DNA from: an uncultured Candidatus Saccharibacteria bacterium
Lineage (GTDB): Bacteria; Patescibacteriota; Minisyncoccia; Phycocordibacterales; UBA2163
DNA length: 64,000 nucleotides
Direction: 5' to 3'
Assembly (NCBI GenBank): GCA_964626705.1
Contig: CAZVGL010000001.1
Span: 87,643-151,642, forward strand
Part shown: positions 1-59,264 of the stretch, in pieces
How the letters are laid out: each line of letters begins with the position of its first letter
Numbering within the stretch: the stretch's first letter is position 1
The notes under the pieces: model-generated
What the model saw: the letters and a program-made list of their open reading frames with translations, nothing else
Told to the model about the DNA's origin: nothing
Databases searched by the model: none
Translations under genes and position numbers: made by a program

Positions 1-650
1 TGTATGTTGTTCCTACGCTTACAAAAACTTTTAATGAGCTTGGTATGGATTTGCCAACTAGTACTAGAGCCATAATAGCAATAAGTGAATTTCTTACGAA
101 CAATACTATTACAGCACTATTCGTAGTTATACTATTTGGAGTCGTGGCAGTTTTAAGCTTTCGTTCAAAGAAAGGAAAAAGAATATTTGATTATGTAATA
201 CTTCGTATACCTATTATCTCTAATATCGCACGCGAGACAAATTCAGCAAGAACAACTCGTACATTGTCGTCTCTCTTGTCTTCTGGTGTAGAAGTTGTAA
301 ATGCTTTATCTATTACAAGAGATGTCGTGCAAAACTCTTATTATAAAGAGGTGCTTGAGCAGGCTAAAAAAGACATACAGAAAGGAAATCCATTGTCGAA
401 ATCATTTATGGTAAGTGAACGTATTTACCCAATACTCGTGTCTGAGATGATAGCTGTTGGTGAAGAGACTGGTCAATTGTCAGAAATGCTTCAGCAAATT
501 GCAGAGTTCTATGAAAATGAAGTTGAGCAAAAAACAAAAAACATATCCACAATCATTGAGCCGTTCTTAATGGTATTTATCGGTATAGTTGTAGGTTTTT
601 TCGCTATTTCTATGGTCTCTCCAATCTACTCTATCTCTTCAGGGATATAA
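1..650 (+). CDS. pilC: Type IV pilus / T2SS inner-membrane platform protein (PilC/GspF family), C-terminal portion; the 5' end lies outside the window
   Basis: The frame is open to the window edge. There is a GspF-domain helix pair (..IAVGEETGQLSEMLQQIAEFYE..) and a C-terminal TM segment. Prepilin genes follow directly. Confidence 0.8.
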   Translation, partial: YVVPTLTKTFNELGMDLPTSTRAIIAISEFLTNNTITALFVVILFGVVAVLSFRSKKGKRIFDYVILRIPIISNIARETNSARTTRTLSSLLSSGVEVVNALSITRDVVQNSYYKEVLEQAKKDIQKGNPLSKSFMVSERIYPILVSEMIAVGEETGQLSEMLQQIAEFYENEVEQKTKNISTIIEPFLMVFIGIVVGFFAISMVSPIYSISSGI

Positions 651-676
651 GAATAATTTTTTGCTACAATTAAAAG

Positions 677-1147
677 ATGAAAATAAAAACTAACAAAGGT
701 TCTTCTTTTACAGAAATACTAGTCATTATTGCTATATCTGTTCTTATTGTTGGCGGGGTAACCGCATCTTTTTCTGTTTTTAATAAAAGTCAAAATATAA
801 AAGGTGCGGTAAGCGAAATATCCTCCGAGCTTGATGAGGCACGTGCTTTAACTCTTGCGTCGTATGACAATACGGTATATGGAGTACATATAGAGTCAGA
901 TAAAGTTACCCTTTTTAAAGGCGATACATATTCTTCAGTTAGTGCAGATAATGAAGTTACAGAGCTTTCACCAAGAGTGTCTATCTCCGGTATTTCTTTG
1001 TCTGGTGGTGGAGATGACGTAATATTTCAGAGATTGACAGGTAAGACTGATCAATATGGCACCCTGACCGTTTCTTTAATCTCAGATATTACAGAAACAA
1101 AAGTGATCACCATACAAGAATCAGGGATAATAGAGTCTGATATATGA
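677..1147 (+). CDS. Type IV prepilin-like minor pilin
   Basis: The N-terminus KG|SSFTEILVIIAISVLIVGG has a class III signal peptide with Glu at +5 and a hydrophobic helix. It sits in tandem with other pilins. Confidence 0.65.
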   Translation: MKIKTNKGSSFTEILVIIAISVLIVGGVTASFSVFNKSQNIKGAVSEISSELDEARALTLASYDNTVYGVHIESDKVTLFKGDTYSSVSADNEVTELSPRVSISGISLSGGGDDVIFQRLTGKTDQYGTLTVSLISDITETKVITIQESGIIESDI

Positions 1148-1650
1148 TATTAAAACATAAACATAACAATGGCTTAGGGCTGATAGAAATAATTATAGGA
1201 ACAGCGATCATTTCTTTGTCTCTTGTTGGTCTTGTGACGGCTTTCAATGTATTTATGCGTACAGGTCTTTCAAATACAAATAAGATACAAGCAACATATA
1301 TTATGGAAGAAGGAGTCGAAGCTATAAGGTATTTAAGGGATGGTGGATATTCTTCAAATATAAATACACTAATTTCCGGAGTGCCGTATTATCTTTTATT
1401 TGATGGGTCGAACTGGAGTACAACTATTACGAGTAGTCTGATCGATAATAAATTTGATAGAACTATAACTATTGCGGATGTGTATCGTAGAGATTCAGAT
1501 GACGACATAGTAGATATATTATCTTCTGATCCAAAAACTCTTGATGGTAGTACTGTTCAAGCTACTGTTAAAGTTATGTGGGATGGCTTAGGAATAGCTC
1601 AAGAGGAGATAAGTTCAATAATATATCTTACAGATTTTTTTAATAATTAA
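1144..1650 (+). CDS. Type IV prepilin-like minor pilin / pseudopilin
   Basis: N-terminus NNG|LGLIEIIIGTAIISL matches the prepilin peptidase motif G|xxLIE. It overlaps the upstream gene by 4 nt. Confidence 0.65.
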   Translation: MILKHKHNNGLGLIEIIIGTAIISLSLVGLVTAFNVFMRTGLSNTNKIQATYIMEEGVEAIRYLRDGGYSSNINTLISGVPYYLLFDGSNWSTTITSSLIDNKFDRTITIADVYRRDSDDDIVDILSSDPKTLDGSTVQATVKVMWDGLGIAQEEISSIIYLTDFFNN

Positions 1651-1653
1651 TTT

Positions 1654-2151
1654 ATGGAATTTAAAAAGTTAAAAACAAAAGGATTTTCATTGCTTGAGTC
1701 GCTTGTATATATAGCAATATTGTCTGTAATGACGGTTATAATAATAAACATACTTATCTCAACCGCTAGCTCTTACGGTATGTTGCGACTTACAAGAAGT
1801 ATAAACAGCTCAGCCATATCATCTCTTGAAAGAATGACACGAGAAATAAAATCAGCAGATGATATCTCTGTAGCAGGAAGTGTTTTTGATACTCATCCAG
1901 GAAAGCTAGTAATAAATATTGGGTCTACAACAAGAGAATTTTATATTGATACTGGGGTGCTTAAAATAAAAGAAGATGACGTAGATAAAGGAGCTATAAC
2001 AAGAGATGGTATTACTGTAGATAGTATGGTGCTTAAGAATCTTGATAACGGCACCTCCAAAGCTATTCGAATAGAAATGACTCTTTTGGGGACACATCGC
2101 AATAGCACGATTACAAAGAAATTTTATTCTTTTGCTGTCTTAAGAAATTAA
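1654..2151 (+). CDS. Type IV prepilin-like minor pilin
   Basis: N-terminus KG|FSLLESLVYIAILSV has Glu at +5 followed by a hydrophobic helix. Confidence 0.7.
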   Translation: MEFKKLKTKGFSLLESLVYIAILSVMTVIIINILISTASSYGMLRLTRSINSSAISSLERMTREIKSADDISVAGSVFDTHPGKLVINIGSTTREFYIDTGVLKIKEDDVDKGAITRDGITVDSMVLKNLDNGTSKAIRIEMTLLGTHRNSTITKKFYSFAVLRN

Positions 2152-2152
2152 T

Positions 2153-3454
2153 ATGATAAAAAGATCAAATTATAAAAATAAAAAGATATTAACTAATGGC
2201 GGGCAAGCGATGATGATAGCTGTGATGTTTTTTCTTTCAGGAAGTCTTATTGTGCTAGGTGGTGTTGTATCTCCTGTGCTTAAGGATGTAAAAATTACAC
2301 GTAGCGTAATGGAGTCTAAACAAAGCATCTATATTTCAGAAAGTGGTGTAGAGGATTTGGTATATCGTGTAAAGAATGATATGAATTTTTCTAATACAGA
2401 AAATATTACTACAGGTGATGTTTCTGCAACAACTACAATAACAACAGTTGGTAGTAATAGGGAAGTTGTTTCTGTTGGAGATAAGGATAGTGTTATAAGA
2501 ATAATGAAAGCTGTCATTTCAGCTGGAGCAGGGGCTTCGTTTAACTATGCTCTACAAGCAGGAGATGGAGGTGTGGAGATGGAGAGTTATTCATATGTAT
2601 CTGGCAATGTTTTTTCTAATACTGAAATTGAAGGAGAGAGTTCAAATGTGGTTGATGGTGATGTAGTATCAGCAGGACCAGATGGACTTATAGATGATTT
2701 GAGCGTGACAGGAAGTGGATATGCTAATACTATAAGCGATTCCACTATTGATGTAGATGCTTATTATCAAAGTATTTCCGATACAGACGTGGGAGGGATG
2801 TCATACCCTGGAAGTCCAGACCAAACAACAGGAACTATGCCGATCTCTGATTCTCTTATAACTGACATTGAAACAGATGCTGCAAACGGAGGTACGATAA
2901 GTTCACCATGTCCTTATATTATAGATTCAGATGTAACACTTGGGCCTATTAAGATTAATTGTGATCTAGAAATAAATGATACTTCAGTGGTTACATTAGA
3001 GGGGAATATATGGGTTGTTGGAGATATTATTATGCGAAACTCAGCAATTATACAAATAGCGCCATCTTTGGGAGGAGATAGTGTTGTTGTGGTTGCTGAT
3101 GACCCTTTGGATAGAGAAGATAGTAGTACAATCTCTATTAAAAATAGCGTAACATTTGTAGGGTCTGGTTCGGAAGGTTCTTATGTAGTTATGATTTCGC
3201 AAAACAATGATGCAGAAAACGGAGGAGGTGAGGAAGCTATCGAAGTTAAAAACAGTGTCAGCGGAGATCTTGTTGTGTATGCTCCACACGGTAAAATCCA
3301 GATAAAAAACAGTGCTTATTCAAATGGAGCAGCTGGTTATGAGGTGGAGCTGAACAATAGCGGACACATAGATTATAATCCAGAGTTAACTAATCTGTTG
3401 TTTGCCGGAGACCTAGATGGTGGATTTAATTTAGATAGCTGGTTGGAGATTTAA
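2153..3454 (+). CDS. PilX-N-domain pilus assembly / minor pilin-associated protein
   Basis: The N-terminal GGQAMMIAVMFFLSGSLIVLGG helix is PilX_N-like. The rest is a large Ser/Thr/Asp/Gly-rich exposed domain. It is the last gene of the pilin cluster. Confidence 0.55.
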   Translation: MIKRSNYKNKKILTNGGQAMMIAVMFFLSGSLIVLGGVVSPVLKDVKITRSVMESKQSIYISESGVEDLVYRVKNDMNFSNTENITTGDVSATTTITTVGSNREVVSVGDKDSVIRIMKAVISAGAGASFNYALQAGDGGVEMESYSYVSGNVFSNTEIEGESSNVVDGDVVSAGPDGLIDDLSVTGSGYANTISDSTIDVDAYYQSISDTDVGGMSYPGSPDQTTGTMPISDSLITDIETDAANGGTISSPCPYIIDSDVTLGPIKINCDLEINDTSVVTLEGNIWVVGDIIMRNSAIIQIAPSLGGDSVVVVADDPLDREDSSTISIKNSVTFVGSGSEGSYVVMISQNNDAENGGGEEAIEVKNSVSGDLVVYAPHGKIQIKNSAYSNGAAGYEVELNNSGHIDYNPELTNLLFAGDLDGGFNLDSWLEI

Positions 3455-3471
3455 TGTGATAATATATAAAT

Positions 3472-4254
3472 ATGACTAAAAATAAGAAACTTATTATAGC
3501 TAATTGGAAACTTAATCCAAAGACTTTGAAAGATGCGAAAAAGCTTTTTTCTGATATTAAAAAGGTTGGAAGTACGACTAGAAATATACAAACGGTAATA
3601 TGTTCACCATCTATATATATAAATGAACTTAACAAAATGTATTCTGGACATAGAGTAGAAGTAGGAGCGCAGGACGTGTTTTGGGAGAATGAAGGTTCAC
3701 ACACAGGAGAGATCTCACCTGTCGCACTTAAAAGTGTGGGTGCAAAGTATGTGATAATAGGACATTCAGAAAGAAGGGCTCTTGGAGAAACTAATGTTGA
3801 TGTAAATAAAAAAGTAGTCGCGACCCTTAAAGAAGGGTTGAATGTAGTTTTGTGTATTGGAGAAAGTAAGAGAGATTCGCAGGCGCTTTATCTTAAATTT
3901 TTACAAGAAGAGCTAGAAAGTGCACTTATTGGTGTGCCCAAAAACCATCTTAAAAATTTGATAGTTACATATGAACCAGTGTGGGCAATAGGGAAAACTG
4001 CAGGCGATGCTGTGTCGTCACATCAGATGCATGAAATGTCCATTTTTATAAAAAAGATCTTAATAGGTTTGTATGGAAAGAATACAATGCAAAATGTGCC
4101 TATAATATACGGCGGTTCTGCAGAGCCAGGTAATGTAAGAGAATTGTTAGATAAAGGAGAGGTAGATGGTTTCCTTGTAGGGCATGCATCTCTTAAGGCG
4201 AGTGAGTTTAATGAAATTCTAAAAATAACAAATGAAAAAAATCCAAGAATCTAA
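3472..4254 (+). CDS. tpiA: Triosephosphate isomerase
   Basis: Motifs IIANWKLN, GHSERR, YEPVWAIGTG-like (VTYEPVWAIGKT) and YGGS are present; length 260 aa. Confidence 0.93.
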   Translation: MTKNKKLIIANWKLNPKTLKDAKKLFSDIKKVGSTTRNIQTVICSPSIYINELNKMYSGHRVEVGAQDVFWENEGSHTGEISPVALKSVGAKYVIIGHSERRALGETNVDVNKKVVATLKEGLNVVLCIGESKRDSQALYLKFLQEELESALIGVPKNHLKNLIVTYEPVWAIGKTAGDAVSSHQMHEMSIFIKKILIGLYGKNTMQNVPIIYGGSAEPGNVRELLDKGEVDGFLVGHASLKASEFNEILKITNEKNPRI

Positions 4255-5350
4255 AGATTTAAAAGGTAAAAAGGTGCTTTTAAGAAGTACTCTTAATGTT
4301 CCTATAAAGAATGAGAAAATAATTAATGATTTTCGCTTAAGAGCATCTTTAAAGACAATTAATTTTTTAAGAGATTCTGGCGCAAAAGTCATACTGATTG
4401 GTCATATAGGAAGAGGTCCTGAGTCACTACTTCCTGTATTTGAATATTTTAAAACTCAAATACCAACAATATCTTTTACACAAGAAGTATTGGGAGAAAA
4501 AACTAATTCTGCAATAGAGCAAATGAACGACGGTGACATAGTTATGCTTGAAAATCTAAGAGTAGATGATAGAGAGGTTGTAAATGATGATAGTTTTGCA
4601 AAAGAGCTTGCAGGTCTTGCAGATTTTTATGTAAATGACGCATTCTCTGTGTCACATAGAGAGCACGCTTCTGTTGTAGGTGTGCCAAAATATTTAGAAA
4701 GTTTTATAGGGATTTTGTTTCAAGAAGAGATGGATGAATTGTCGGAAGCGATAAATCCTCCAGCAGGGTCGCTTTGTATTTTAGGTGGTGCTAAGTTTAA
4801 TACAAAAGAGCCTATTATAAAAAAGATGATTAGCAAGTACGATAAAATATTTGTATTTGGCGCACTTGCTAATGACCTTTTTAAAGCGCGAGGTTTTAAT
4901 ATTGGAGTATCTTTGTCTTCAGATGTAGGTATTGATGTAAAAGAATTGGTACAAAATGAGAAAATCATAATACCATCTGACGTCACAGTTGAGAACAAAG
5001 AGGGTATATTTGTAAAAAAGCCAAATGAAGTATTGGCTGGTGATAATATAGTAGATGCAGGGCCAGAGACCATAGAAGGTCTTTCAAAAATAATTAATGA
5101 TGCTAAATTTATTTTATGGAACGGACCTCTTGGAGAGTATGAAAGAGGATTTGGTAAACATACAGAGCTTGTTGCACAAGTTATTGCAAATTCACCTGCA
5201 AAAACTCTAATAGGAGGAGGAGATACTATCGCCTCAACAGAGCATCTTGGGCTTGATGATAAATTCTCATTCATCTCTACAGCTGGTGGTGCAATGCTTA
5301 AGTTCTTGCTTGATGGCACGCTTGTTGGTATAGAAGTACTTAGAGATTAA
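4232..5350 (+). CDS. pgk: Phosphoglycerate kinase
   Basis: The N-terminus GKKVLLRSTLNVPI and hinge motifs are PGK-like; length 372 aa. It overlaps tpiA by 23 nt, consistent with translational coupling. Confidence 0.92.
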   Translation: MKKIQESKDLKGKKVLLRSTLNVPIKNEKIINDFRLRASLKTINFLRDSGAKVILIGHIGRGPESLLPVFEYFKTQIPTISFTQEVLGEKTNSAIEQMNDGDIVMLENLRVDDREVVNDDSFAKELAGLADFYVNDAFSVSHREHASVVGVPKYLESFIGILFQEEMDELSEAINPPAGSLCILGGAKFNTKEPIIKKMISKYDKIFVFGALANDLFKARGFNIGVSLSSDVGIDVKELVQNEKIIIPSDVTVENKEGIFVKKPNEVLAGDNIVDAGPETIEGLSKIINDAKFILWNGPLGEYERGFGKHTELVAQVIANSPAKTLIGGGDTIASTEHLGLDDKFSFISTAGGAMLKFLLDGTLVGIEVLRD

Positions 5351-5792: not shown

Positions 5793-7499
5793 ATGTCTAA
5801 ATATCCTATTCGTGAAGCAGTGCACGAAAATGATCTAAGTGAATTAAAAGAATATGGGGAGTTGATGCAACAACTTCTTTTTTATCGTGGTATTAAGACT
5901 AGGGATGAAGCGCGAGAGTTTCTCAATCCAAACTATGATACTCATGTACACGATCCATTTCTTTTGAAGAATATGAACAAAGCAGTAGAGAGAATACTTT
6001 CTGCTATAGAGAAAAAAGAGAAAATAGTTATCTATAGTGACTATGATTGCGATGGTATACCAGGCGGTGTAGTACTTCATGATTTTTTTAAAAAGATTGA
6101 GTATGAGAACGTAAGTAATCACATACCACATAGGCACGATGACGGTTATGGTTTTCACGCATCGGCAGTTGAAGAGTTCACGAAAGATAATGTGAAATTA
6201 ATTATCACAGTCGATTGTGGTATTGCAGATATAGAAACAGTAGAAAAAGCAAACGAGCTTGGTGTAGATGTGATAATTACTGACCATCATCTTGTTGGAA
6301 AGAAATTGCCAGATGCGTATGCAGTAATAGATCACAAACAAGATGGTGATGAATATCCAGATAAAAATATCTCTGGTGCAGGAGTGGCTTTTAAGCTTGT
6401 GCAAGCTTTAATACAAAAAGGAGATTTTGATATAAAAGAAGGTTGGGAAAAGTGGCTACTTGATATGGTGGGACTTGCAACAGTTGCTGACATGGTGCCT
6501 CTTATAGGAGAGAATAGGTCATTTGCCCACTTCGGTTTGAAAGTTCTACGTAAGTCGCCAAGGGTTGGGCTCATGAAGCTTTGTAAAAAAATAAAAGTAA
6601 ATCAAAAAGAAATAACAGAAGATGATATAGGGTTTATGATAGCTCCTCGTATCAATGCAGCTTCACGTATGGATTTGCCATATGATGCCTTTAAACTTCT
6701 TGTGACAGATGATGAGGTGCATGCAGGTGAGCTGTCTACGTATTTGGATAAAATAAATAACGAGAGAAAAGGTGTTGTAGCAAGTATTGTGAAAGAGATA
6801 AAAAAGAATATCAAAGCTTTAGATGATTTAGATAATGTAATAGTGATGGGTAATCCAGATTGGAAACCAGCACTTTTAGGACTTGTTGCAAATTCCATTG
6901 CTGAAGAGTATGACAAGCCGGTATTCCTTTGGGGGAGAGACGGTGGTGATGTGTTAAAAGGGTCTTGTAGGTCAGATGGCAAAGTAAACCTTGTTAGTAT
7001 GATGGAGATGGTAAAAGAGTCTTTTATAGGTTTTGGTGGGCATGCATATGCTGGAGGGTTTTCTATTAAGACAGAAGATGTACATACTCTTGGAAAGGTT
7101 TTGAGTGATGTGTACGAGAAAGCAAAAAAGTATCATGCAGACAATGTAGAAGAGATTTTTATAGACAAACATCTTGAAGTAGATGATGTGAGTTGGAATA
7201 CATATAGTGTTGTGGAAAAGTTTGCACCATTTGGTGTTGGTAATCCTAAACCACTTTTTCTATTCAACAGCATTTTAATTGACGAAGTTAATCATTTTGG
7301 TAAAGAGAAGAATCATCTTAAGCTTGAGTTTAAGAAAAATAATGGAAAGGTGGTTTCTGCAATAGCATTTTTTAAAACTAATGAAAGTTTTGAGAAGGCT
7401 CTAGAGAAGGGTGAAAGGATAAATTTGGTAGCAACTATGGAAAAATCAATGTTTCGTAACTTCCCAAAACTTCGATTGAGAATAGTAGACATTATTTAA
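5793..7499 (+). CDS. recJ: Single-stranded-DNA-specific exonuclease RecJ
   Basis: DHH motifs (YSDYDCDGIPGG, ITDHH) and a DHHA1 Gly-rich motif (GFGGHAYAGGF) are present; length 568 aa. Confidence 0.88.
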   Translation: MSKYPIREAVHENDLSELKEYGELMQQLLFYRGIKTRDEAREFLNPNYDTHVHDPFLLKNMNKAVERILSAIEKKEKIVIYSDYDCDGIPGGVVLHDFFKKIEYENVSNHIPHRHDDGYGFHASAVEEFTKDNVKLIITVDCGIADIETVEKANELGVDVIITDHHLVGKKLPDAYAVIDHKQDGDEYPDKNISGAGVAFKLVQALIQKGDFDIKEGWEKWLLDMVGLATVADMVPLIGENRSFAHFGLKVLRKSPRVGLMKLCKKIKVNQKEITEDDIGFMIAPRINAASRMDLPYDAFKLLVTDDEVHAGELSTYLDKINNERKGVVASIVKEIKKNIKALDDLDNVIVMGNPDWKPALLGLVANSIAEEYDKPVFLWGRDGGDVLKGSCRSDGKVNLVSMMEMVKESFIGFGGHAYAGGFSIKTEDVHTLGKVLSDVYEKAKKYHADNVEEIFIDKHLEVDDVSWNTYSVVEKFAPFGVGNPKPLFLFNSILIDEVNHFGKEKNHLKLEFKKNNGKVVSAIAFFKTNESFEKALEKGERINLVATMEKSMFRNFPKLRLRIVDII

Positions 7500-11963: not shown

Positions 11964-12132
11964 TACTTGACAAGATAGTCAAAGTGTGCTAGTATATAGG
12001 CATAATACATCGGGTGTTATTTGATCTTTTATTTTTTTGATTTTTTAGCCGAAAGGGGTTAAAAATGAAATATTTATTTACTTTACTTATTGTTGCGATT
12101 ACTTTTGTTTTTTCAACTCAAAATTCTTTTGC
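11901..12132 (+). repeat. 232-bp direct repeat, copy 1 (3' end of the protease gene + promoter + RBS + signal-peptide coding region)
   Basis: It is identical to 13021-13252 by visual alignment. Confidence 0.9.
11967..11995 (+). promoter_or_regulatory. Predicted sigma70-like promoter (TTGACA-N17-TAGTAT), copy 1
   Basis: Near-consensus hexamers lie inside the duplicated 232-bp block upstream of the 12065 gene. Confidence 0.5.
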
Positions 12133-12922
12133 ACTTGTTCCTCCTGTTGAAAGTTTTCAACAACAGGAAGTACAGACCTCTAATTCCACGAGCTGTTATT
12201 TGGAATTAGAAACAGCTTTAGAAGAATTCTGTAAGGATTTCGTAGTTGAGGGATCGGTTGTTGAAGTGTCTATAAATACTATAGACGCTAATCTTATTCG
12301 TTCGAGAGACGATTCCGATAGGGCTATAAGCTTGGAAGTGTCTGTAAATTCACAACAGAAAGTTATATTCTTTGATTCTCTAATGGATGATAAGAAGGAA
12401 GAGGATAGATTAAAAGAGAATTTAAGATTGCATTTTCTGGCAGAAGAATATGTTGCTGGAGCAACAGCTGAGAGAATTAATGAGATTTTACATGAAGTAG
12501 AAGAGATGGAAGAAGATATGCAGAACCTCTTTCGACAGATTAGTGGGGAGATGATGGACGATAAAAATAACGAAGATAGGTTAAAATTGATTCTAAAGTC
12601 TCGTTTAACAAGTCATTTTTCTCAAGATGAAAAAAATGAGGCTAGTGATTCTTTTAATACTCTATTAGATAAATTAGAGTATTTTGTAAAAGAGAATTCA
12701 TTAGAAGGATTGTCTTTCCAGGAATTAGGAGAGAAATACACTTTAATTCTTGATTACAGGAGCCAGATTTTTGGAAATCTAGAGTATGTAATACTGTATG
12801 AGACTGTTGGTCTCATTACTCTGGAGTGTGCTAAAGAATTACGGACGCAGTTAAATGAACTGTTATCCGGTTTCAAAGAAACTTCAGACCAAGTATTGCA
12901 AATCCTGAAAGAATCGAAGTAG
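12065..12922 (+). CDS. Secreted acidic coiled-coil protein of unknown function (paralog A)
   Basis: Signal peptide MKYLFTLLIVAITFVFSTQNSFA. The internal duplication MDDKKEEDRLKENLRLHF / MDDKNNEDRLKLILKSRL is visible. An RBS AAAGGGG precedes the ATG. Confidence 0.6.
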   Translation: MKYLFTLLIVAITFVFSTQNSFALVPPVESFQQQEVQTSNSTSCYLELETALEEFCKDFVVEGSVVEVSINTIDANLIRSRDDSDRAISLEVSVNSQQKVIFFDSLMDDKKEEDRLKENLRLHFLAEEYVAGATAERINEILHEVEEMEEDMQNLFRQISGEMMDDKNNEDRLKLILKSRLTSHFSQDEKNEASDSFNTLLDKLEYFVKENSLEGLSFQELGEKYTLILDYRSQIFGNLEYVILYETVGLITLECAKELRTQLNELLSGFKETSDQVLQILKESK

Positions 12923-13000
12923 TAAACTGCAGATGAAGAAGATAAGCAGCTAATGTAGTCCAATGTTGGATTTACCTCTTAGCTGTTTTATTTTTGTCTG

Positions 13001-13024
13001 TTGCACCCAAAAAGGGCACGCCGA
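13001..13024 (+). repeat. Truncated solo copy of the TTGCAC structured-repeat family (head only) abutting copy 2 of the 232-bp duplication
   Basis: TTGCACCCAAAAAGGGCACGCCGA matches the unit heads at 13648, 13707 and 21562. Confidence 0.7.
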
Positions 13025-13252
13025 TTTTTGTAAAATTAGTTTCTTTAATCTTCTCACTCATAACAGGGTTGCCTTTCTTTTAGTACTTGACAAGATAGTC
13101 AAAGTGTGCTAGTATATAGGCATAATACATCGGGTGTTATTTGATCTTTTATTTTTTTGATTTTTTAGCCGAAAGGGGTTAAAAATGAAATATTTATTTA
13201 CTTTACTTATTGTTGCGATTACTTTTGTTTTTTCAACTCAAAATTCTTTTGC
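13021..13252 (+). repeat. 232-bp direct repeat, copy 2
   Basis: It is identical to 11901-12132 and carries the same promoter (TTGACA at 13087, TAGTAT at 13110), RBS and signal-peptide codons. Confidence 0.9.
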
Positions 13253-13598
13253 TTTGAATCATACCAGTTTCGAAGGTCTCACAAAGGAGTCTTCCATAGA
13301 AGATGTGGAAAAGATGCTTGATAAAGAGATAAAAGTCATTAATAACAAAAAAATCAATTTAAATAAAGAAAATATTCTTGTAAACCTTAAAAAGGCAAAT
13401 AAGAGTGTCGCTGAAGCAAGAAGTATCCTTTCTGGCGCAATATCAGAGCGTTACAAGATAGCGCTAGAATATGTAAAAATTTTAGCTGAAGAATTTCCTA
13501 CTGTTTCAAAAAAGAGAAAGGTGGAGATATTGGAAACTGTAAGAAAGGCAAAAATGACAGAGGAATTCTTAGCGGAAAGGTTTAAGGTTAAAGAATAG
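13185..13598 (+). CDS. Secreted small helical protein of unknown function (paralog B; same signal peptide, unrelated mature part)
   Basis: The first 23 aa are identical to paralog A. It is followed by the terminator at 13611-13647. Confidence 0.6.
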   Translation: MKYLFTLLIVAITFVFSTQNSFALNHTSFEGLTKESSIEDVEKMLDKEIKVINNKKINLNKENILVNLKKANKSVAEARSILSGAISERYKIALEYVKILAEEFPTVSKKRKVEILETVRKAKMTEEFLAERFKVKE

Positions 13599-13610
13599 TT
13601 TGAGTTTTAA

Positions 13611-13647
13611 AGGACTTGATACCGCGTATGTATCAAGCCTTTTTTAT
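13611..13647 (+). terminator. Rho-independent terminator
   Basis: AGGACTTGATACCGCGTATGTATCAAGCCT followed by TTTTTT. Confidence 0.7.
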
Positions 13648-13889
13648 TTGCACCCAAAAAGGGTACTGCAATCTGCAAATCAATCACTACGTTCTTGAGC
13701 AAACCGTTGCACCCAAAGGGCACGCCGGTTTGTAGCTGATCACTCCGTTCTCAGACAAACCGTTGCACCCAAAGGGCACGCCGGTTTGTGGCCAATCGCT
13801 TTGCTCTTGGACAAACCGTTGCACCTAAAGGGCACTGCAATCTACAAATCAATCGCTATCGCTCTTGAGTAGATTGGTTGCATTTTTTT
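13648..13889 (+). repeat. Tandem array of four structured repeat units of 56-59 bp (order B-A-A-B) plus a terminal TTGCAT, immediately upstream of rpsL
   Basis: The units start at 13648, 13707, 13763 and 13819. Each begins TTGCACC(C/T)AAAGGG(C/T)AC and ends ...AAACCG / GATTGG. The A units carry the inverted repeat CGGTTTGT-N21-ACAAACCG. The final TTGCAT at 13878 can serve as a -35 for rpsL. Confidence 0.85.
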
Positions 13890-13948
13890 GGCTTTGTAGT
13901 ATATTGTATCTACTCGCTAAGCGGGTTTTTTTATAAAAATACAAAGAA

Positions 13949-14356
13949 ATGTCCACAATTAACCAATTGGTAAAAAAGAAGAGAAAAAAAGAAGCCACAA
14001 AGTCAAAGACTGTGGCGCTTTCACGTGGTTTTAATACATTGAAGAATAAGCCGGTTTTCTATAATTCACCATTTAAAAGAGGTGTATGTATAAAGGTAAT
14101 GACAAAGACTCCAAAGAAACCTAACTCTGCTGTGCGAAAGGTGGCAAGAGTGCGACTTACAAACGGTATGGAGGTTACTGCATATATTCCAGGAATGGGG
14201 CATAATTTGCAGGAGCACTCAGTAGTACTTCTGCGTGGTGGACGTGTAAAAGATATTGGACTACGATACACTGTGGTACGAGGAAAGCTTGACGCAGGTG
14301 GAGTAGAGAAAAGAAATAGAGGAAGAAGTAAGTACGGTACTAAAAAACCTAAATAA
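13949..14356 (+). CDS. rpsL: 30S ribosomal protein uS12
   Basis: [33 protein letters not shown]; length 135 aa. Confidence 0.96.
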
Positions 14357-14365
14357 ATTTAAATA

Positions 14366-14836
14366 ATGAGAAGAAAAATTAAAAGAAGAAAAGAGGTTGA
14401 TGGAGACTCAGTATATGGGTCTGTTAAACTTACTAAATTTATCAACTACGTAATGCAAGACGGTAAGAAAAACACTGCGCGTAAAGTAGTTTACGATACT
14501 CTTGAAGAGATAAAAACTAAAGAAAAGACAGATAAACCGGAGGTTCTTTTTGAAACAGCTCTTGATAATGTGGGGCCAAACATGGAAGTACGTTCACGAA
14601 GAGTAGGAGGTGCTAACTATCAGGTTCCTAGAGAAGTGCGTCCAGAAAGAAGGATGTTGCTTTCAATGCGATGGATAATAGGTGCAGCACAAGCAAAGAA
14701 AGGATCTCCTATGTATAAAAGGCTTGCAGAAGAGCTTATACTTGCTAGTAAAAACGAAGGTGAAGCATTCAAGAAGAAAGAAAACGTACACAAAATGGCA
14801 GAGTCTAACAAAGCCTTTGCACACTTTGCTTGGTAA
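14366..14836 (+). CDS. rpsG: 30S ribosomal protein uS7
   Basis: S7 family; length 156 aa; follows rpsL. Confidence 0.95.
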   Translation: MRRKIKRRKEVDGDSVYGSVKLTKFINYVMQDGKKNTARKVVYDTLEEIKTKEKTDKPEVLFETALDNVGPNMEVRSRRVGGANYQVPREVRPERRMLLSMRWIIGAAQAKKGSPMYKRLAEELILASKNEGEAFKKKENVHKMAESNKAFAHFAW

Positions 14837-20776: not shown

Positions 20777-21148
20777 ATGACAACAGCGACAACTAAAACT
20801 AAAAAAGCGCCTGCTAAGAAAAAAGCGTCAAAAAAAGACGAAGCGCCTAAGATCCGAATCCGTGTTCGTGCATACGAGCATAAGATTTTGGACAGTTCTA
20901 TAAAACAAATTATAGACACAGTGCTTCGTTTTGATGCAAAGATAGTAGGACCTATACCGCTTCCAACAGAGATCAAGAAGTATACTGTAAACCGTGCATC
21001 ATTTGTTTACAAAGATGCTCGTGAGCAGTTTGAGATGAGAGTTCATAAAAGGGTTATAGATATCCTTAGCCCATCTCCAAAGATCATAGAAGCGCTCACA
21101 AACATGAGCTTACCGTCTGGAGTCAATATCGACATAAAGATGGTTTAA
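20777..21148 (+). CDS. rpsJ: 30S ribosomal protein uS10 with a ~25-aa Lys/Ala-rich N-terminal extension
   Basis: IRIRVRAYEHKILDSS...VNRASFVYKDAREQFEMRVHKR is the S10 core. It is preceded by TTATTKTKKAPAKKKASKKDEAPK. Confidence 0.93.
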   Translation: MTTATTKTKKAPAKKKASKKDEAPKIRIRVRAYEHKILDSSIKQIIDTVLRFDAKIVGPIPLPTEIKKYTVNRASFVYKDAREQFEMRVHKRVIDILSPSPKIIEALTNMSLPSGVNIDIKMV

Positions 21149-21287: not shown

Positions 21288-21464
21288 ATGTCAGTATCAA
21301 AAAAGACAAAGAAGAAACCTATTGAGAAAGAAGAATTTTTCATCGGTGTGTGTAATGAATGCGGAAACGAAACCGTAAAAGTTTCAAGCCTTGTTATAAA
21401 ACATTGGACGGATAAATGTAAGATCGGCAGTTGTGATGGGAGATACACTTACATCGAGGTTTGA
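21288..21464 (+). CDS. Unannotated 58-aa Cys4 zinc-ribbon-like protein (the ORF track missed it because it is under 60 aa)
   Basis: A perfect RBS AAGAGGAGG lies 6 nt before the ATG. Translation: MSVSKKTKKKPIEKEEFFIGVCNECGNETVKVSSLVIKHWTDKCKIGSCDGRYTYIEV (CxxC...CxxxxC). The minus-strand ORF at 21263-21448 is its antisense shadow. Confidence 0.6.
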   Translation: MSVSKKTKKKPIEKEEFFIGVCNECGNETVKVSSLVIKHWTDKCKIGSCDGRYTYIEV

Positions 21465-21561: not shown

Positions 21562-21762
21562 TTGCACCCAAAGGGCACGCCGGTTTGTGGCTGATCACTC
21601 CGTTCTCAGACAAACCGTTGCACCCAAAGGGTACTTGCAATTTGCTAGGCCAATCGCTACGCTTTTGGGCAAATTGGTTGCACGACTCGGATTAGACAGC
21701 CTCCATGCACGCCGGTTTGTGGCTGATCACTCCGTTCTCAGACAAACCGTTGCATTTTATTG
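21562..21762 (+). repeat. Second tandem array of the TTGCAC structured-repeat family (units of 56, 60 and 72 bp plus a terminal TTGCAT) immediately upstream of rplC
   Basis: Unit 1 (21562-21617) differs from unit 2 of the rpsL array at one position. Unit 3 carries a 25-nt insert after the head. The array ends in TTGCAT, which forms a -35. Confidence 0.85.
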
Positions 21763-21778: not shown

Positions 21779-21793
21779 ACAATCACTTATTTA

Positions 21794-21815
21794 GAAGCTC
21801 GTAGCTTCTTTTTTG
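21794..21815 (+). promoter_or_regulatory. Leader hairpin GAAGCTCGTAGCTTC plus U-run, 8 nt before the rplC ATG
   Basis: The same motif recurs before rpsS (24576-24598). It looks like an attenuator or r-protein operator. Confidence 0.45.
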
Positions 21816-24570: not shown

Positions 24571-24575
24571 CTGTA

Positions 24576-24598
24576 AAGCTCGTAGGAGCTTGTTTTTA
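24576..24598 (+). promoter_or_regulatory. Leader hairpin AAGCTCGTAGGAGCTT plus U-run before rpsS
   Basis: The sequence and position match the rplC leader hairpin. Confidence 0.45.
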
Positions 24599-58994: not shown

Positions 58995-59264
58995 ATGGCA
59001 ACAAAAAGAAAAGCTGCAAAGCGAAAGCCAGCTAAAAAGCGAGTAGTAAAAAGAAAAGCAGCTCCAAAGAAAAAAGTAGCAAAGCGAAAGCCAGCTAAAA
59101 GGAAAGCAGCACCAAAGAAAAAGAAGGCTGCTCCAAAGCGAAAGCCAGCTAAAAGGAAAGCAGCACCAAAGAAAAAGAAGGCTGCTCCAAAGCGAAAAGC
59201 TGCAAAGCGAAAGCCAGCTAAAAAGAAAGCTGCAAAAAGGAAGCCAGCTCGACGACGACGATAA
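58995..59264 (+). CDS. Histone-H1-like Lys/Ala/Pro-rich basic protein (89 aa)
   Basis: It consists almost entirely of KRKPAKRKAAPKKKKAAPK repeats and is encoded with two exact 54-bp tandem repeats (59081-59188). A terminator lies downstream. The minus-strand ORF at 58854-59360 is its mirror artefact. There is no clear RBS. Confidence 0.5.
   Translation: MATKRKAAKRKPAKKRVVKRKAAPKKKVAKRKPAKRKAAPKKKKAAPKRKPAKRKAAPKKKKAAPKRKAAKRKPAKKKAAKRKPARRRR

Follow-up and report, generated by a model that had tools for sequence, protein, structure and literature searches.

Several kinds of small structured repeat are known from the spaces between bacterial genes, and here we compare with them a family of hairpin units found in a 64-kb stretch of contig CAZVGL010000001.1, from an uncultured Candidatus Saccharibacteria bacterium (hereafter the window; coordinates refer to it unless a contig label beginning with L is given, and all features in it lie on the plus strand). 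The units stand head to tail directly upstream of the promoters of the ribosomal protein genes rpsL and rplC, and we observed insertion with duplication of the pentanucleotide TTGCA, a covarying hairpin, copies at multiple loci and in multiple host genomes, and strict orientation. [quoted passage not shown]

REP sequences and bacterial interspersed mosaic elements (BIMEs), with their REP-associated tyrosine transposases (RAYTs; Y1, HUH), resemble the window units in being short, imperfect, non-coding intergenic palindromes, often placed just after terminators, and in being clustered, with sub-families that carry compensatory stem changes. However, they have a GTAG or CGTC tag that the window units do not conserve, they number tens to hundreds of dispersed copies per genome where the window units are very few, and they alternate in orientation, whereas the window units are strictly direct and head to tail, with an unpaired 17-nt head; no Y1 transposase or RAYT was found among Pfam-annotated genes in ~100 kb of this (probable) genome. 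The PATEs of IS200/IS605 share with our units the lack of terminal inverted repeats, a sub-terminal hairpin as structural handle, a strand-specific orientation and integration beside a fixed sequence of 4-5 nt (TTAC for IS608, TTGAT for ISDra2 and, in the window, TTGCA, which precedes all units). Yet PATEs have distinct left-end and right-end hairpins where each window unit has one major hairpin, and in the window, unlike in IS200/IS605, the element itself has the target-like pentamer as its 3' end; neither tnpA nor tnpB was seen in the portions of the genome that had Pfam calls.

Promoter-associated MITEs such as the Correia elements of Neisseria are likewise small non-autonomous repeats with short direct-repeat flanks that end up in promoters, but in Correia and other MITEs the inverted repeats are terminal and a DDE transposase generates the target-site duplication (TA or another), whereas the inverted repeat of the window units is internal. 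Pneumococcal BOX elements (boxA-boxB(n)-boxC) are alike in build only, with no sequence kinship expected: both are intergenic, structured and modular, with a variable number of direct tandem sub-units of ~45-60 bp and an unexplained mobilization, but BOX elements differ from our units in having distinct terminal modules and >100 copies per genome. The UP element and Fis sites of rrn P1 are, like our arrays, repeated upstream modules abutting the -35 box of ribosomal promoters, although relatives share those regions, whose sequence is A/T-rich or resembles protein sites, while the window units are absent in relatives and are defined by a covarying hairpin. The low-copy, -35-associated, tandem form described here lacks the defining features of REP, MITE, PATE, integron attC and BOX elements; mobile and repeated DNA is poorly charted in the tiny, compact genomes of the candidate phyla radiation (CPR, or Patescibacteria).

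Arrays at the rpsL and rplC promoters

Array 1 comprises four head-to-tail units at 13648-13877, between the terminator of an accessory gene and rpsL (start at 13949), and array 2 comprises three units at 21562-21749, 5' of rplC; a decayed unit lies alone at 13001. The features are as follows, with bit scores from a covariance model.

13001-13068, plus strand: decayed solo unit, of which head TTGCACCCAAAAAGGGCAC and left-arm remnant GCCGATTTTTGT remain
13615-13645, plus strand: intrinsic terminator of the upstream 137-aa accessory gene (stem at 13615-13637 and T run), directly 5' of array 1
13648-13706, plus strand: array 1 unit 1, 59 bp, 51.5 bits
13707-13762, plus strand: array 1 unit 2, A type, 56 bp, 87.5 bits
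13763-13818, plus strand: array 1 unit 3, A type, 56 bp, inner stem CCAA/TTGG, loop TCGCTTTGCTC, 60.5 bits
13819-13877, plus strand: array 1 unit 4, B type, 59 bp, head TTGCACCTAAAGGGCAC, 72.2 bits
13878-13905, plus strand: putative rpsL promoter, -35 TTGCAT at 13878-13883, 16-nt spacer, -10 TATATT at 13900-13905
13912-13932, plus strand: hairpin and U run in the leader (5' untranslated region, 5' UTR) of rpsL, a conserved context feature outside the repeat
21562-21617, plus strand: array 2 unit 1, A type, 87.1 bits
21618-21677, plus strand: array 2 unit 2, C type, outer stem CAATTTGC/GCAAATTG, inner stem CCAA/TTGG, 48.8 bits
21678-21749, plus strand: array 2 unit 3, A-type hairpin with aberrant head TTGCAC-(23 nt)-GCAC, 65.5 bits
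21750-21778, plus strand: putative rplC promoter, -35 TTGCAT (21750), 17-nt spacer, -10 TACTAT (21773)
21793-21814, plus strand: hairpin and U run in the rplC 5' UTR leader, a conserved context feature outside the repeat

This layout agrees with the original prediction for this DNA, which had described four consecutive units of 56-59 bp from 13648 (Tandem Repeats Finder gave array 1 a period of 56 and a score of 210), placed them between an upstream terminator and rpsL, taken the closing TTGCAT as the -35 box before TATATT, and pointed out a second array 5' of rplC and a solo head at 13001. The terminator at 13615-13645 is homologous to that of the relative L126, and the 350 bp 5' of rpsL are identical across eight independent assemblies, so array 1 is not an assembly artifact. 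The solo unit follows the terminator of a 285-aa accessory gene, and its portion at 13001-13044 scored 19.7 bits (E = 0.008) with covariance model R1. Five matches to the head with up to three mismatches occur in the window against 0.08 expected, and a covariance-model search of the whole window with filters off returned the seven array units, the decayed one at 13001, and no others.

From its 5' end a unit consists of head TTGCACCCAAAGGGCAC (17 nt), 1-3 nt, the left arm of an 8-bp outer stem, a 5'-side bulge of 2-4 nt, the left arm of a 4-bp inner stem and a loop of 11-13 nt with the consensus TCRCT-N2-3-GYTC; after the loop come the complementary arms, an optional G, and TTGCA, which is either the start of the next head or the -35 box. 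The inverted repeat begins 19-20 nt inside the 5' end, and every unit is predicted to fold into the hairpin as single-stranded DNA. Unit 2 of array 1 reads, after its head, CGGTTTGT / CTGA-TCACTCCGTTC-TCAG / ACAAACCG, and differs by 1 nt from unit 1 of array 2. The head is common to array units generally, as predicted, with departures in unit 1 of array 1 (a 19-nt head with AAAAA in place of AAA) and in unit 3 of array 2 (23 nt in place of CCAAAGG). A hairpin had been ascribed to variant A only; the A units are indeed paired, but the B-type unit 4 has its own compensatory 8-bp outer stem (CAATCTAC/GTAGATTG) with inner stem TCAA/TTGA, and the C-type unit has the outer stem listed above. These three sub-families, each with compensatory stems, are mixed inside one array. 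Unit 1 of array 1 is a chimera, joining a B-type left arm (CAATCTGC) to an A-type right arm (GCAAACCG) around the inner stem TCAA/TTGA; its outer stem is mismatched on the plus strand and pairs on the minus strand only via G.T.

All units have the inner stem, and its versions CTGA/TCAG, CCAA/TTGG and TCAA/TTGA covary. The prediction had named stem covariation as a check, and in an alignment of nine units, two of them from other contigs, 95.6% of cells were paired and 8 of the 12 hairpin pairs had changed on both sides, while in slid controls (partner shifted by 1-3 columns) pairing fell to 25-47%. No conserved GTAG or CGTC stands beside the stem in this alignment: GTAG is only incidental, being part of the B-type arm GTAGATTG and also of unit 2. 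We rejected coding potential because the unit lengths, 56 and 59 nt, are not multiples of three. No tRNA or tmRNA was found, and Rfam 15 gave no match at gathering score in the window, with only chance-level matches around array 1 at E up to 10; on L126, L127, L130 and L131 there were only sub-threshold matches elsewhere on the contigs (e.g., the L10 leader in L127). A full-text literature search with the motif written as DNA or as RNA, for either strand, gave no relevant match, which with the empty Rfam result is consistent with the earlier statement that no such element had been described before ribosomal operons.

We compared the str/S10 region of seven relatives (L126-L129 and L132-L134) whose elongation factor EF-G is 87-97% identical to that of the window. 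The window's best EF-G matches are assigned by their sources to uncultured Patescibacteria (Parcubacteria/Paceibacteria). All seven keep TTGCAT-N16-TATATT (or TACACT) for rpsL and TTGCAT-N17-TACTAT for rplC, and none has a unit; from this conservation in array-less relatives we infer the two promoters, which a generic consensus scan misses because TTGCAT matches TTGACA at only three of six positions. At rpsL, L126 aligns with the window on both flanks of the array and is ~230 bp shorter exactly between TTGCA and the promoter spacer; at rplC, the same holds for L127, which is 188 bp shorter. Each empty site has one TTGCA versus TTGCA-(array)-TTGCA in the window. Given the homologous flanks and the single TTGCA, the branch leading to the window therefore gained the arrays, and did so exactly at the -35 pentamer. 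This TTGCA forms the junction of the insertion and is duplicated at both ends of the array, and 11 of the 14 intergenic plus-strand TTGCA occurrences in the window belong to units. The arrays look lineage-specific and recently acquired, and would not fit a conserved ribosomal regulator; the matched empty promoters of the relatives allow direct comparison of promoter architecture with and without the insert.

Apart from the units, all ribosomal promoters that we inspected (rpsL, rplC and rpsS, and those of 16S and 23S on contig L140) have a short G+C hairpin and 5-7 U within ~10 nt downstream, that of rpsS lying at 24575-24597. For rpsL, rplC and rpsS these hairpins are kept in most or all of the seven relatives. 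The hairpin and U run looks like a promoter-proximal terminator or attenuator, and in the L140 rrn leaders it is followed by the boxA-like CTTTGAYAATTRAA.

Copies at other loci and in other organisms

A metagenome pattern search (head, N13-20, ATCRCT, N16-23, TTGCA) recovered two single units, on contigs L130 and L131. The first, at L130:514-575, lies 5' of a short open reading frame (ORF) for a membrane protein that may be SecG-like; the second, at L131:60-121, is directly 3' of a PAP2 gene. They have new compensatory stems (CAGTTTAC/GTAAACTG and TAGTTTGT/ACAAACTG), and each has a perfect TATAAT 16 nt beyond its terminal TTGCA, a box that was no part of the search pattern. The L131 PAP2 protein is only 56% identical to the window organism's P0159. 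A 72% relative of L131 lacks a unit there: L141 and L142 have none after PAP2, at a site that is not strictly orthologous since the downstream gene differs. Just 5' of the L130 unit, at L130:405-513, is a 14-bp long-range inverted repeat (CAGCACCACTTTTG ... CAAAAGTGGTGCTG, ~80 nt apart), which may be another small element or a structured RNA.

P0159 and the window EF-G share a 296,901-bp contig, from which we infer that P0159 belongs to the window organism and that L140, 20.5 kb around P0159, is probably of the same genome. L140 holds 23S, 5S and 16S genes, and one diverged unit (42.5 bits) lies in the 23S-5S spacer at L140:4148-4233, with an expanded head, TTCCACC-(26 nt)-GGTGGAC, and the hairpin CTGTTTGC / TCAC-TCGCTACGCTC-GTGA / GCAAACAG. 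The 16S and 23S promoters of L140 have no unit. The rRNA genes of this contig are unlinked, ~9 kb of protein-coding genes separating the 23S-5S pair (608-4392) from 16S (13139-14608). A partial second 5S-like copy follows the 5S gene at L140:4400-4500, and the terminator after it, CCGCTGTTTGCC-TTT-GGCAAACAGCGG, has the same arm sequence as the hairpin of the spacer unit.

L126 (95% EF-G identity) has a different repeat in two ribosomal leaders:

L126:6385-6582 and L126:20178-20373: ~190-nt repeat, inserted after TTTTTATAG in the rpsL and rpsS 5' UTRs

This repeat has no Rfam match and lacks the unit head, and it ends in a unit-like hairpin with an identical loop, GATTTTCT-AA-CCAC-TCACTCCGTTC-GCGG-AGAAAATC. 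The final hairpin is immediately 5' of ATG, and G-rich segments resembling Shine-Dalgarno sequences are sequestered in long hairpins (RNA fold z = -4.9). Partial copies of the repeat occur at L126:3250-3449 and 6990-7070, shorter versions 5' of the M50 peptidase gene and rpsG. Taken over all of these sites, 8 of 8 independent loci are co-oriented with local transcription.

When the bare 17-mer TTGCACCYAAAGGGYAC was scanned against a genome collection, the matches listed came mostly from non-CPR genomes and included no CPR copy, a scan that gives no measure of the spread of full units. Among those matches the head lay within multi-copy, non-coding repeats of ~180-275 bp beside unrelated housekeeping genes, at these loci:

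Alkalibacillus silvisoli: at least 6 head-bearing repeat loci
Caldilineaceae metagenome-assembled genome (MAG): at least 7 loci
Several Lachnospiraceae: at least 13 loci

Shorter multi-copy occurrences, again among the matches listed, came from Paludifilum, Brevibacillus and Gallionellaceae, and in Gallionellaceae and a gammaproteobacterial MAG the head was inside GTAG-tagged REPIN-like palindromes. In one Lachnospiraceae family CACTCCGTTTC follows 19 nt after the head and is nearly the A-unit loop, which in the window lies 17 nt after the head. The multi-copy intergenic repeats with the 17-mer come from Bacillales, Lachnospiraceae, Caldilineaceae, Gallionellaceae and other Proteobacteria, at loci within L009-L125 such as L018:1026-1302, L014, L110:3994-4270, L054, L046 and L067. 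The 17-mer often sits atop a short stem, some elements have it twice or in inverted form, and among the members of one Lachnospiraceae family it comes and goes as a 17-nt indel. These other-phylum repeats had no Rfam match at the repeat and no match in a literature search, and for two of them there was no similarity in plasmid and phage collections. The viral scans gave 0 and 1 matches. The family is modular in that the L126 repeat has the hairpin without the head and the intergenic repeats of other phyla have the head without the unit hairpin.

One could imagine that TTGCACCCAAAGGGCAC is a pan-bacterial recognition module, read by an HUH-like machinery acting on single-stranded DNA or by an RNA-binding one, through which small intergenic repeats are seeded alike in CPR, Bacillales, Lachnospiraceae, Chloroflexota and Proteobacteria, and that in this lineage it has been coupled to a second hairpin, the combined element being drawn to rRNA spacers and to the -35 TTGCA of the promoters with the highest activity, the ribosomal ones. 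We regard this as quite improbable. The rough chance expectation of repeat families with a given 17-mer is ~0.2 to 1, and the families here were selected by the motif itself. If it were true, ours would be the first promoter-box-targeting repeat, and if the cross-phylum head held against controls, a shared recognition system would lie behind REP-like repeats in very different bacteria.

Origin of the units and competing explanations

As a mobile repeat, the element would be a non-coding sequence of ~51-57 bp made of two modules, the 17-nt head and the two-part hairpin with its conserved loop, whose copies would have integrated beside TTGCA, leaving that pentanucleotide on both sides of every unit. 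With TTGCA(T) as the putative -35 core of the lineage's strong promoters, insertion would regenerate a -35 box before the old spacer and -10, and the promoter would survive because its -35 box is rebuilt in front of the original spacer and -10; for the same reason, the siting of units on -35 boxes may most simply be tolerance, in line with the 11 of 14 intergenic plus-strand TTGCA in the window that units contribute. Each new copy adds another TTGCA, and arrays can therefore grow head to tail, by re-insertion or unequal crossing-over, of which the mixing of A, B and C sub-families and the A/B chimera would be traces. Two events could leave TTGCA at both ends: the target may have been duplicated over 5 bp, or an element ending in a fixed pentamer may have inserted 3' of that pentamer; an element that ended in its own target would explain the head-to-tail growth. 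The hairpin may be the handle for a trans-acting enzyme, probably in single-stranded DNA, for which the best analogy would be a HUH/Y1-type transposase as in IS200/IS605 or RAYT: single orientation, no terminal inverted repeats and TTGCA-ended insertion appear closest in style to HUH/Y1 elements (IS200/IS605, RAYT/REP). The effect on rpsL and rplC expression would be small, an A/T-rich upstream flank being replaced by a G+C-richer hairpin arm.

A spreading modular repeat would fit the presence/absence pattern among relatives, the near-identical units at unrelated promoters, the mixed sub-families, the recombinant unit and the copies in other organisms. On this interpretation a small repeat entered the two operon promoters that are the most conserved in the cell and did not destroy them, since it rebuilt the -35 box, and the arrays would be a natural example of selfish DNA living in essential regulatory DNA, possibly co-opted.

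Several points speak against mobility. Terminal inverted repeats were not found in the units, the 17-nt head having no inverted partner at the 3' end. Copy number is low: a covariance-model count over ~100 kb of this (probable) genome (filters off on the window and L140, default filters on L136 and L137) gave seven intact units, one diverged and one decayed, where the original prediction had expected thousands for a mobile repeat, and 18 kb flanking the window had no copy. No transposase or recombinase was found among ten window ORFs searched with Pfam and in the gene tables of ~40 kb more of the probable same genome. The TTGCA repeat could equally be a 5-bp microhomology used in recombination, and at both ends of the L130 and L131 units TTGCA was a requirement of the search pattern. 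Three of the four loci of this genome and both L126 hairpin copies adjoin ribosomal genes, which may mean function rather than tolerance, and transcription certainly covers the copies in the 23S-5S spacer and in the L126 5' UTRs, which leaves room for an RNA role.

The original prediction had offered two readings, iterated -35 or transcription-factor modules and a small structured mobile repeat. For the former, the repeated TTGCA is a -35 core and the last is the promoter's own -35, but the units have no -10 partner and are therefore not iterated promoters, and arms that change yet stay complementary are not what a sequence-specific binder of duplex DNA would select. For the latter there are the absence in relatives, the several loci, the contigs of other organisms, the compensatory sub-families and the duplicated TTGCA, set against the missing terminal inverted repeats and the lack of a consistent GTAG tag; the mobile-repeat reading is the better supported of the two. 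A broader regulatory role, in which head and/or hairpin would be a protein site tuning strong promoters, like the Fis/UP region of rrn P1, multiplied to raise or insulate rpsL and rplC transcription, seems to us unlikely, though a serious rival. It would account for a unit ending exactly at the -35 TTGCA in four independent promoters, for the perfect TATAAT 16 nt downstream on L130 and L131 although it lay outside the search pattern, for the enrichment at ribosomal loci (rpsL, rplC, the 23S-5S spacer, the L126 rpsL and rpsS leaders), for the strict orientation and for the invariant 17-nt head, which suggests sequence-specific recognition. Yet seven close relatives do without units at these promoters, so that the units are dispensable, the hairpin arms vary while staying complementary, unlike an operator, the rRNA-spacer and 5' UTR copies are away from promoters, and the 16S and 23S promoters of L140 have no unit. 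We are similarly doubtful of an RNA element that is structured and works in transcripts, for instance on their processing, their stability or antitermination, with the arrays reached by read-through from upstream or by minus-strand transcription, although it too deserves serious attention. The covariation pattern is typical of RNA, copies occur within pre-rRNA (the L140 23S-5S spacer) and in the L126 rpsL and rpsS 5' UTRs, every copy points the way transcription runs, the head on the minus strand forms a 6-bp hairpin containing tandem G.U pairs (the minus strand folding better, z = -5.5 versus -2.3), and the 3' half of the loop, CGCTCTTGRACAA, is loosely boxA-like where the organism's own rrn leaders carry CTTTGAYAATTRAA. 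On the other hand, the window arrays are 3' of terminators and 5' of conserved promoters and are therefore probably poorly transcribed; the G.U evidence is split, unit 1 favoring the minus strand, the L131 unit and the head of unit 4 favoring the plus strand; B and C units do not conserve the boxA-like stretch, which overlaps a variable arm; and the element has no Rfam family and is absent in relatives.

Two further explanations have far less to recommend them. Purely local tandem duplication of promoter-proximal DNA by replication slippage, with no mobility or function, would produce the head-to-tail order, the 5-bp junction repeat and the recombinant unit 1, but the same units stand at two promoters that are separated by 8 kb and, units aside, have only TTGCAT in common, copies occur in an rRNA spacer and on the contigs of two other organisms, and three stem sub-families with compensatory changes are mixed in one array; the multi-locus, multi-genome distribution largely refutes slippage, which we judge very improbable. 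A CRISPR-like mini-array or the repeat RNA of a type III toxin-antitoxin system, which short, regularly spaced direct repeats with hairpin potential might call to mind (the head may look like the hairpin segment of certain type I-C CRISPR repeats), is refuted by the anatomy of the units and deserves next to no credence: the 'spacers' are mutually homologous and consist of the conserved hairpin itself, neither cas nor toxin genes adjoin the arrays, which are followed by rpsL and rplC, and no CRISPR direct-repeat family of Rfam matches.

Other candidates were tried and set aside. Iterated sigma-70 promoters were rejected in that no promoter-like site was called within either array and only the terminal TTGCAT has a -10 partner; by eye, TTGTAG, TTGTGG or CTACAA stands 17 nt after each TTGCAC. 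As an integron attC site, the junction GTTGCAC fits GTTRRRY at six of seven positions, but a unit has no R'' (RYYYAAC) partner and no ORFs lie between units; no integrase was found among ten window ORFs scanned with Pfam or in the gene tables around rpsL. A sigma-54 promoter (GGCACG-N4-TTGC) fails, by eye, at the GG-N10-GC spacing. Mimicry of or complementarity to rRNA was rejected, with head and loops no better than shuffles against the Escherichia coli rrn operon and the L140 rRNAs; the aberrant 23-nt head insert is identical to E. coli 23S at 17 of 23 positions (shuffle fraction 0.003), which we judged noise after multiple testing. Identity with boxA was dismissed as a loose resemblance that B and C units do not conserve.

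Neighboring genes

The gaps between conserved ribosomal genes (M50-rpsL, rpsG-fusA, fusA-tuf, rpsJ-rplC and rplB-rpsS) hold different small accessory genes in each relative (window 12065-13598 and 21288-21464, compared with L126-L134), among them ParE/YafQ toxins, a 58-aa zinc-ribbon-like ORF and secreted or membrane proteins, each with its own terminator; these gaps look like gene-insertion hot spots. After rplE of the S10/spc cluster, a ~23-kb block of long non-ribosomal ORFs occupies 28569-51300, and at the same post-rplE position L128 and L129 have a multi-domain glycosyltransferase of 740-760 aa. Ribosomal protein S10 (20777-21148) has a Lys-rich N-terminal extension of ~22 aa; its gene is transcribed with tuf and does not head the S10 operon, rplC having its own promoter. 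Just 5' of secA, at 58995-59264 on the plus strand, an 89-aa protein made up almost entirely of Lys/Ala/Pro/Arg repeats (AKRKPAKRKAAPKKKK..., with a DNA period of 54 nt) looks like a histone-H1-like or nucleoid protein.

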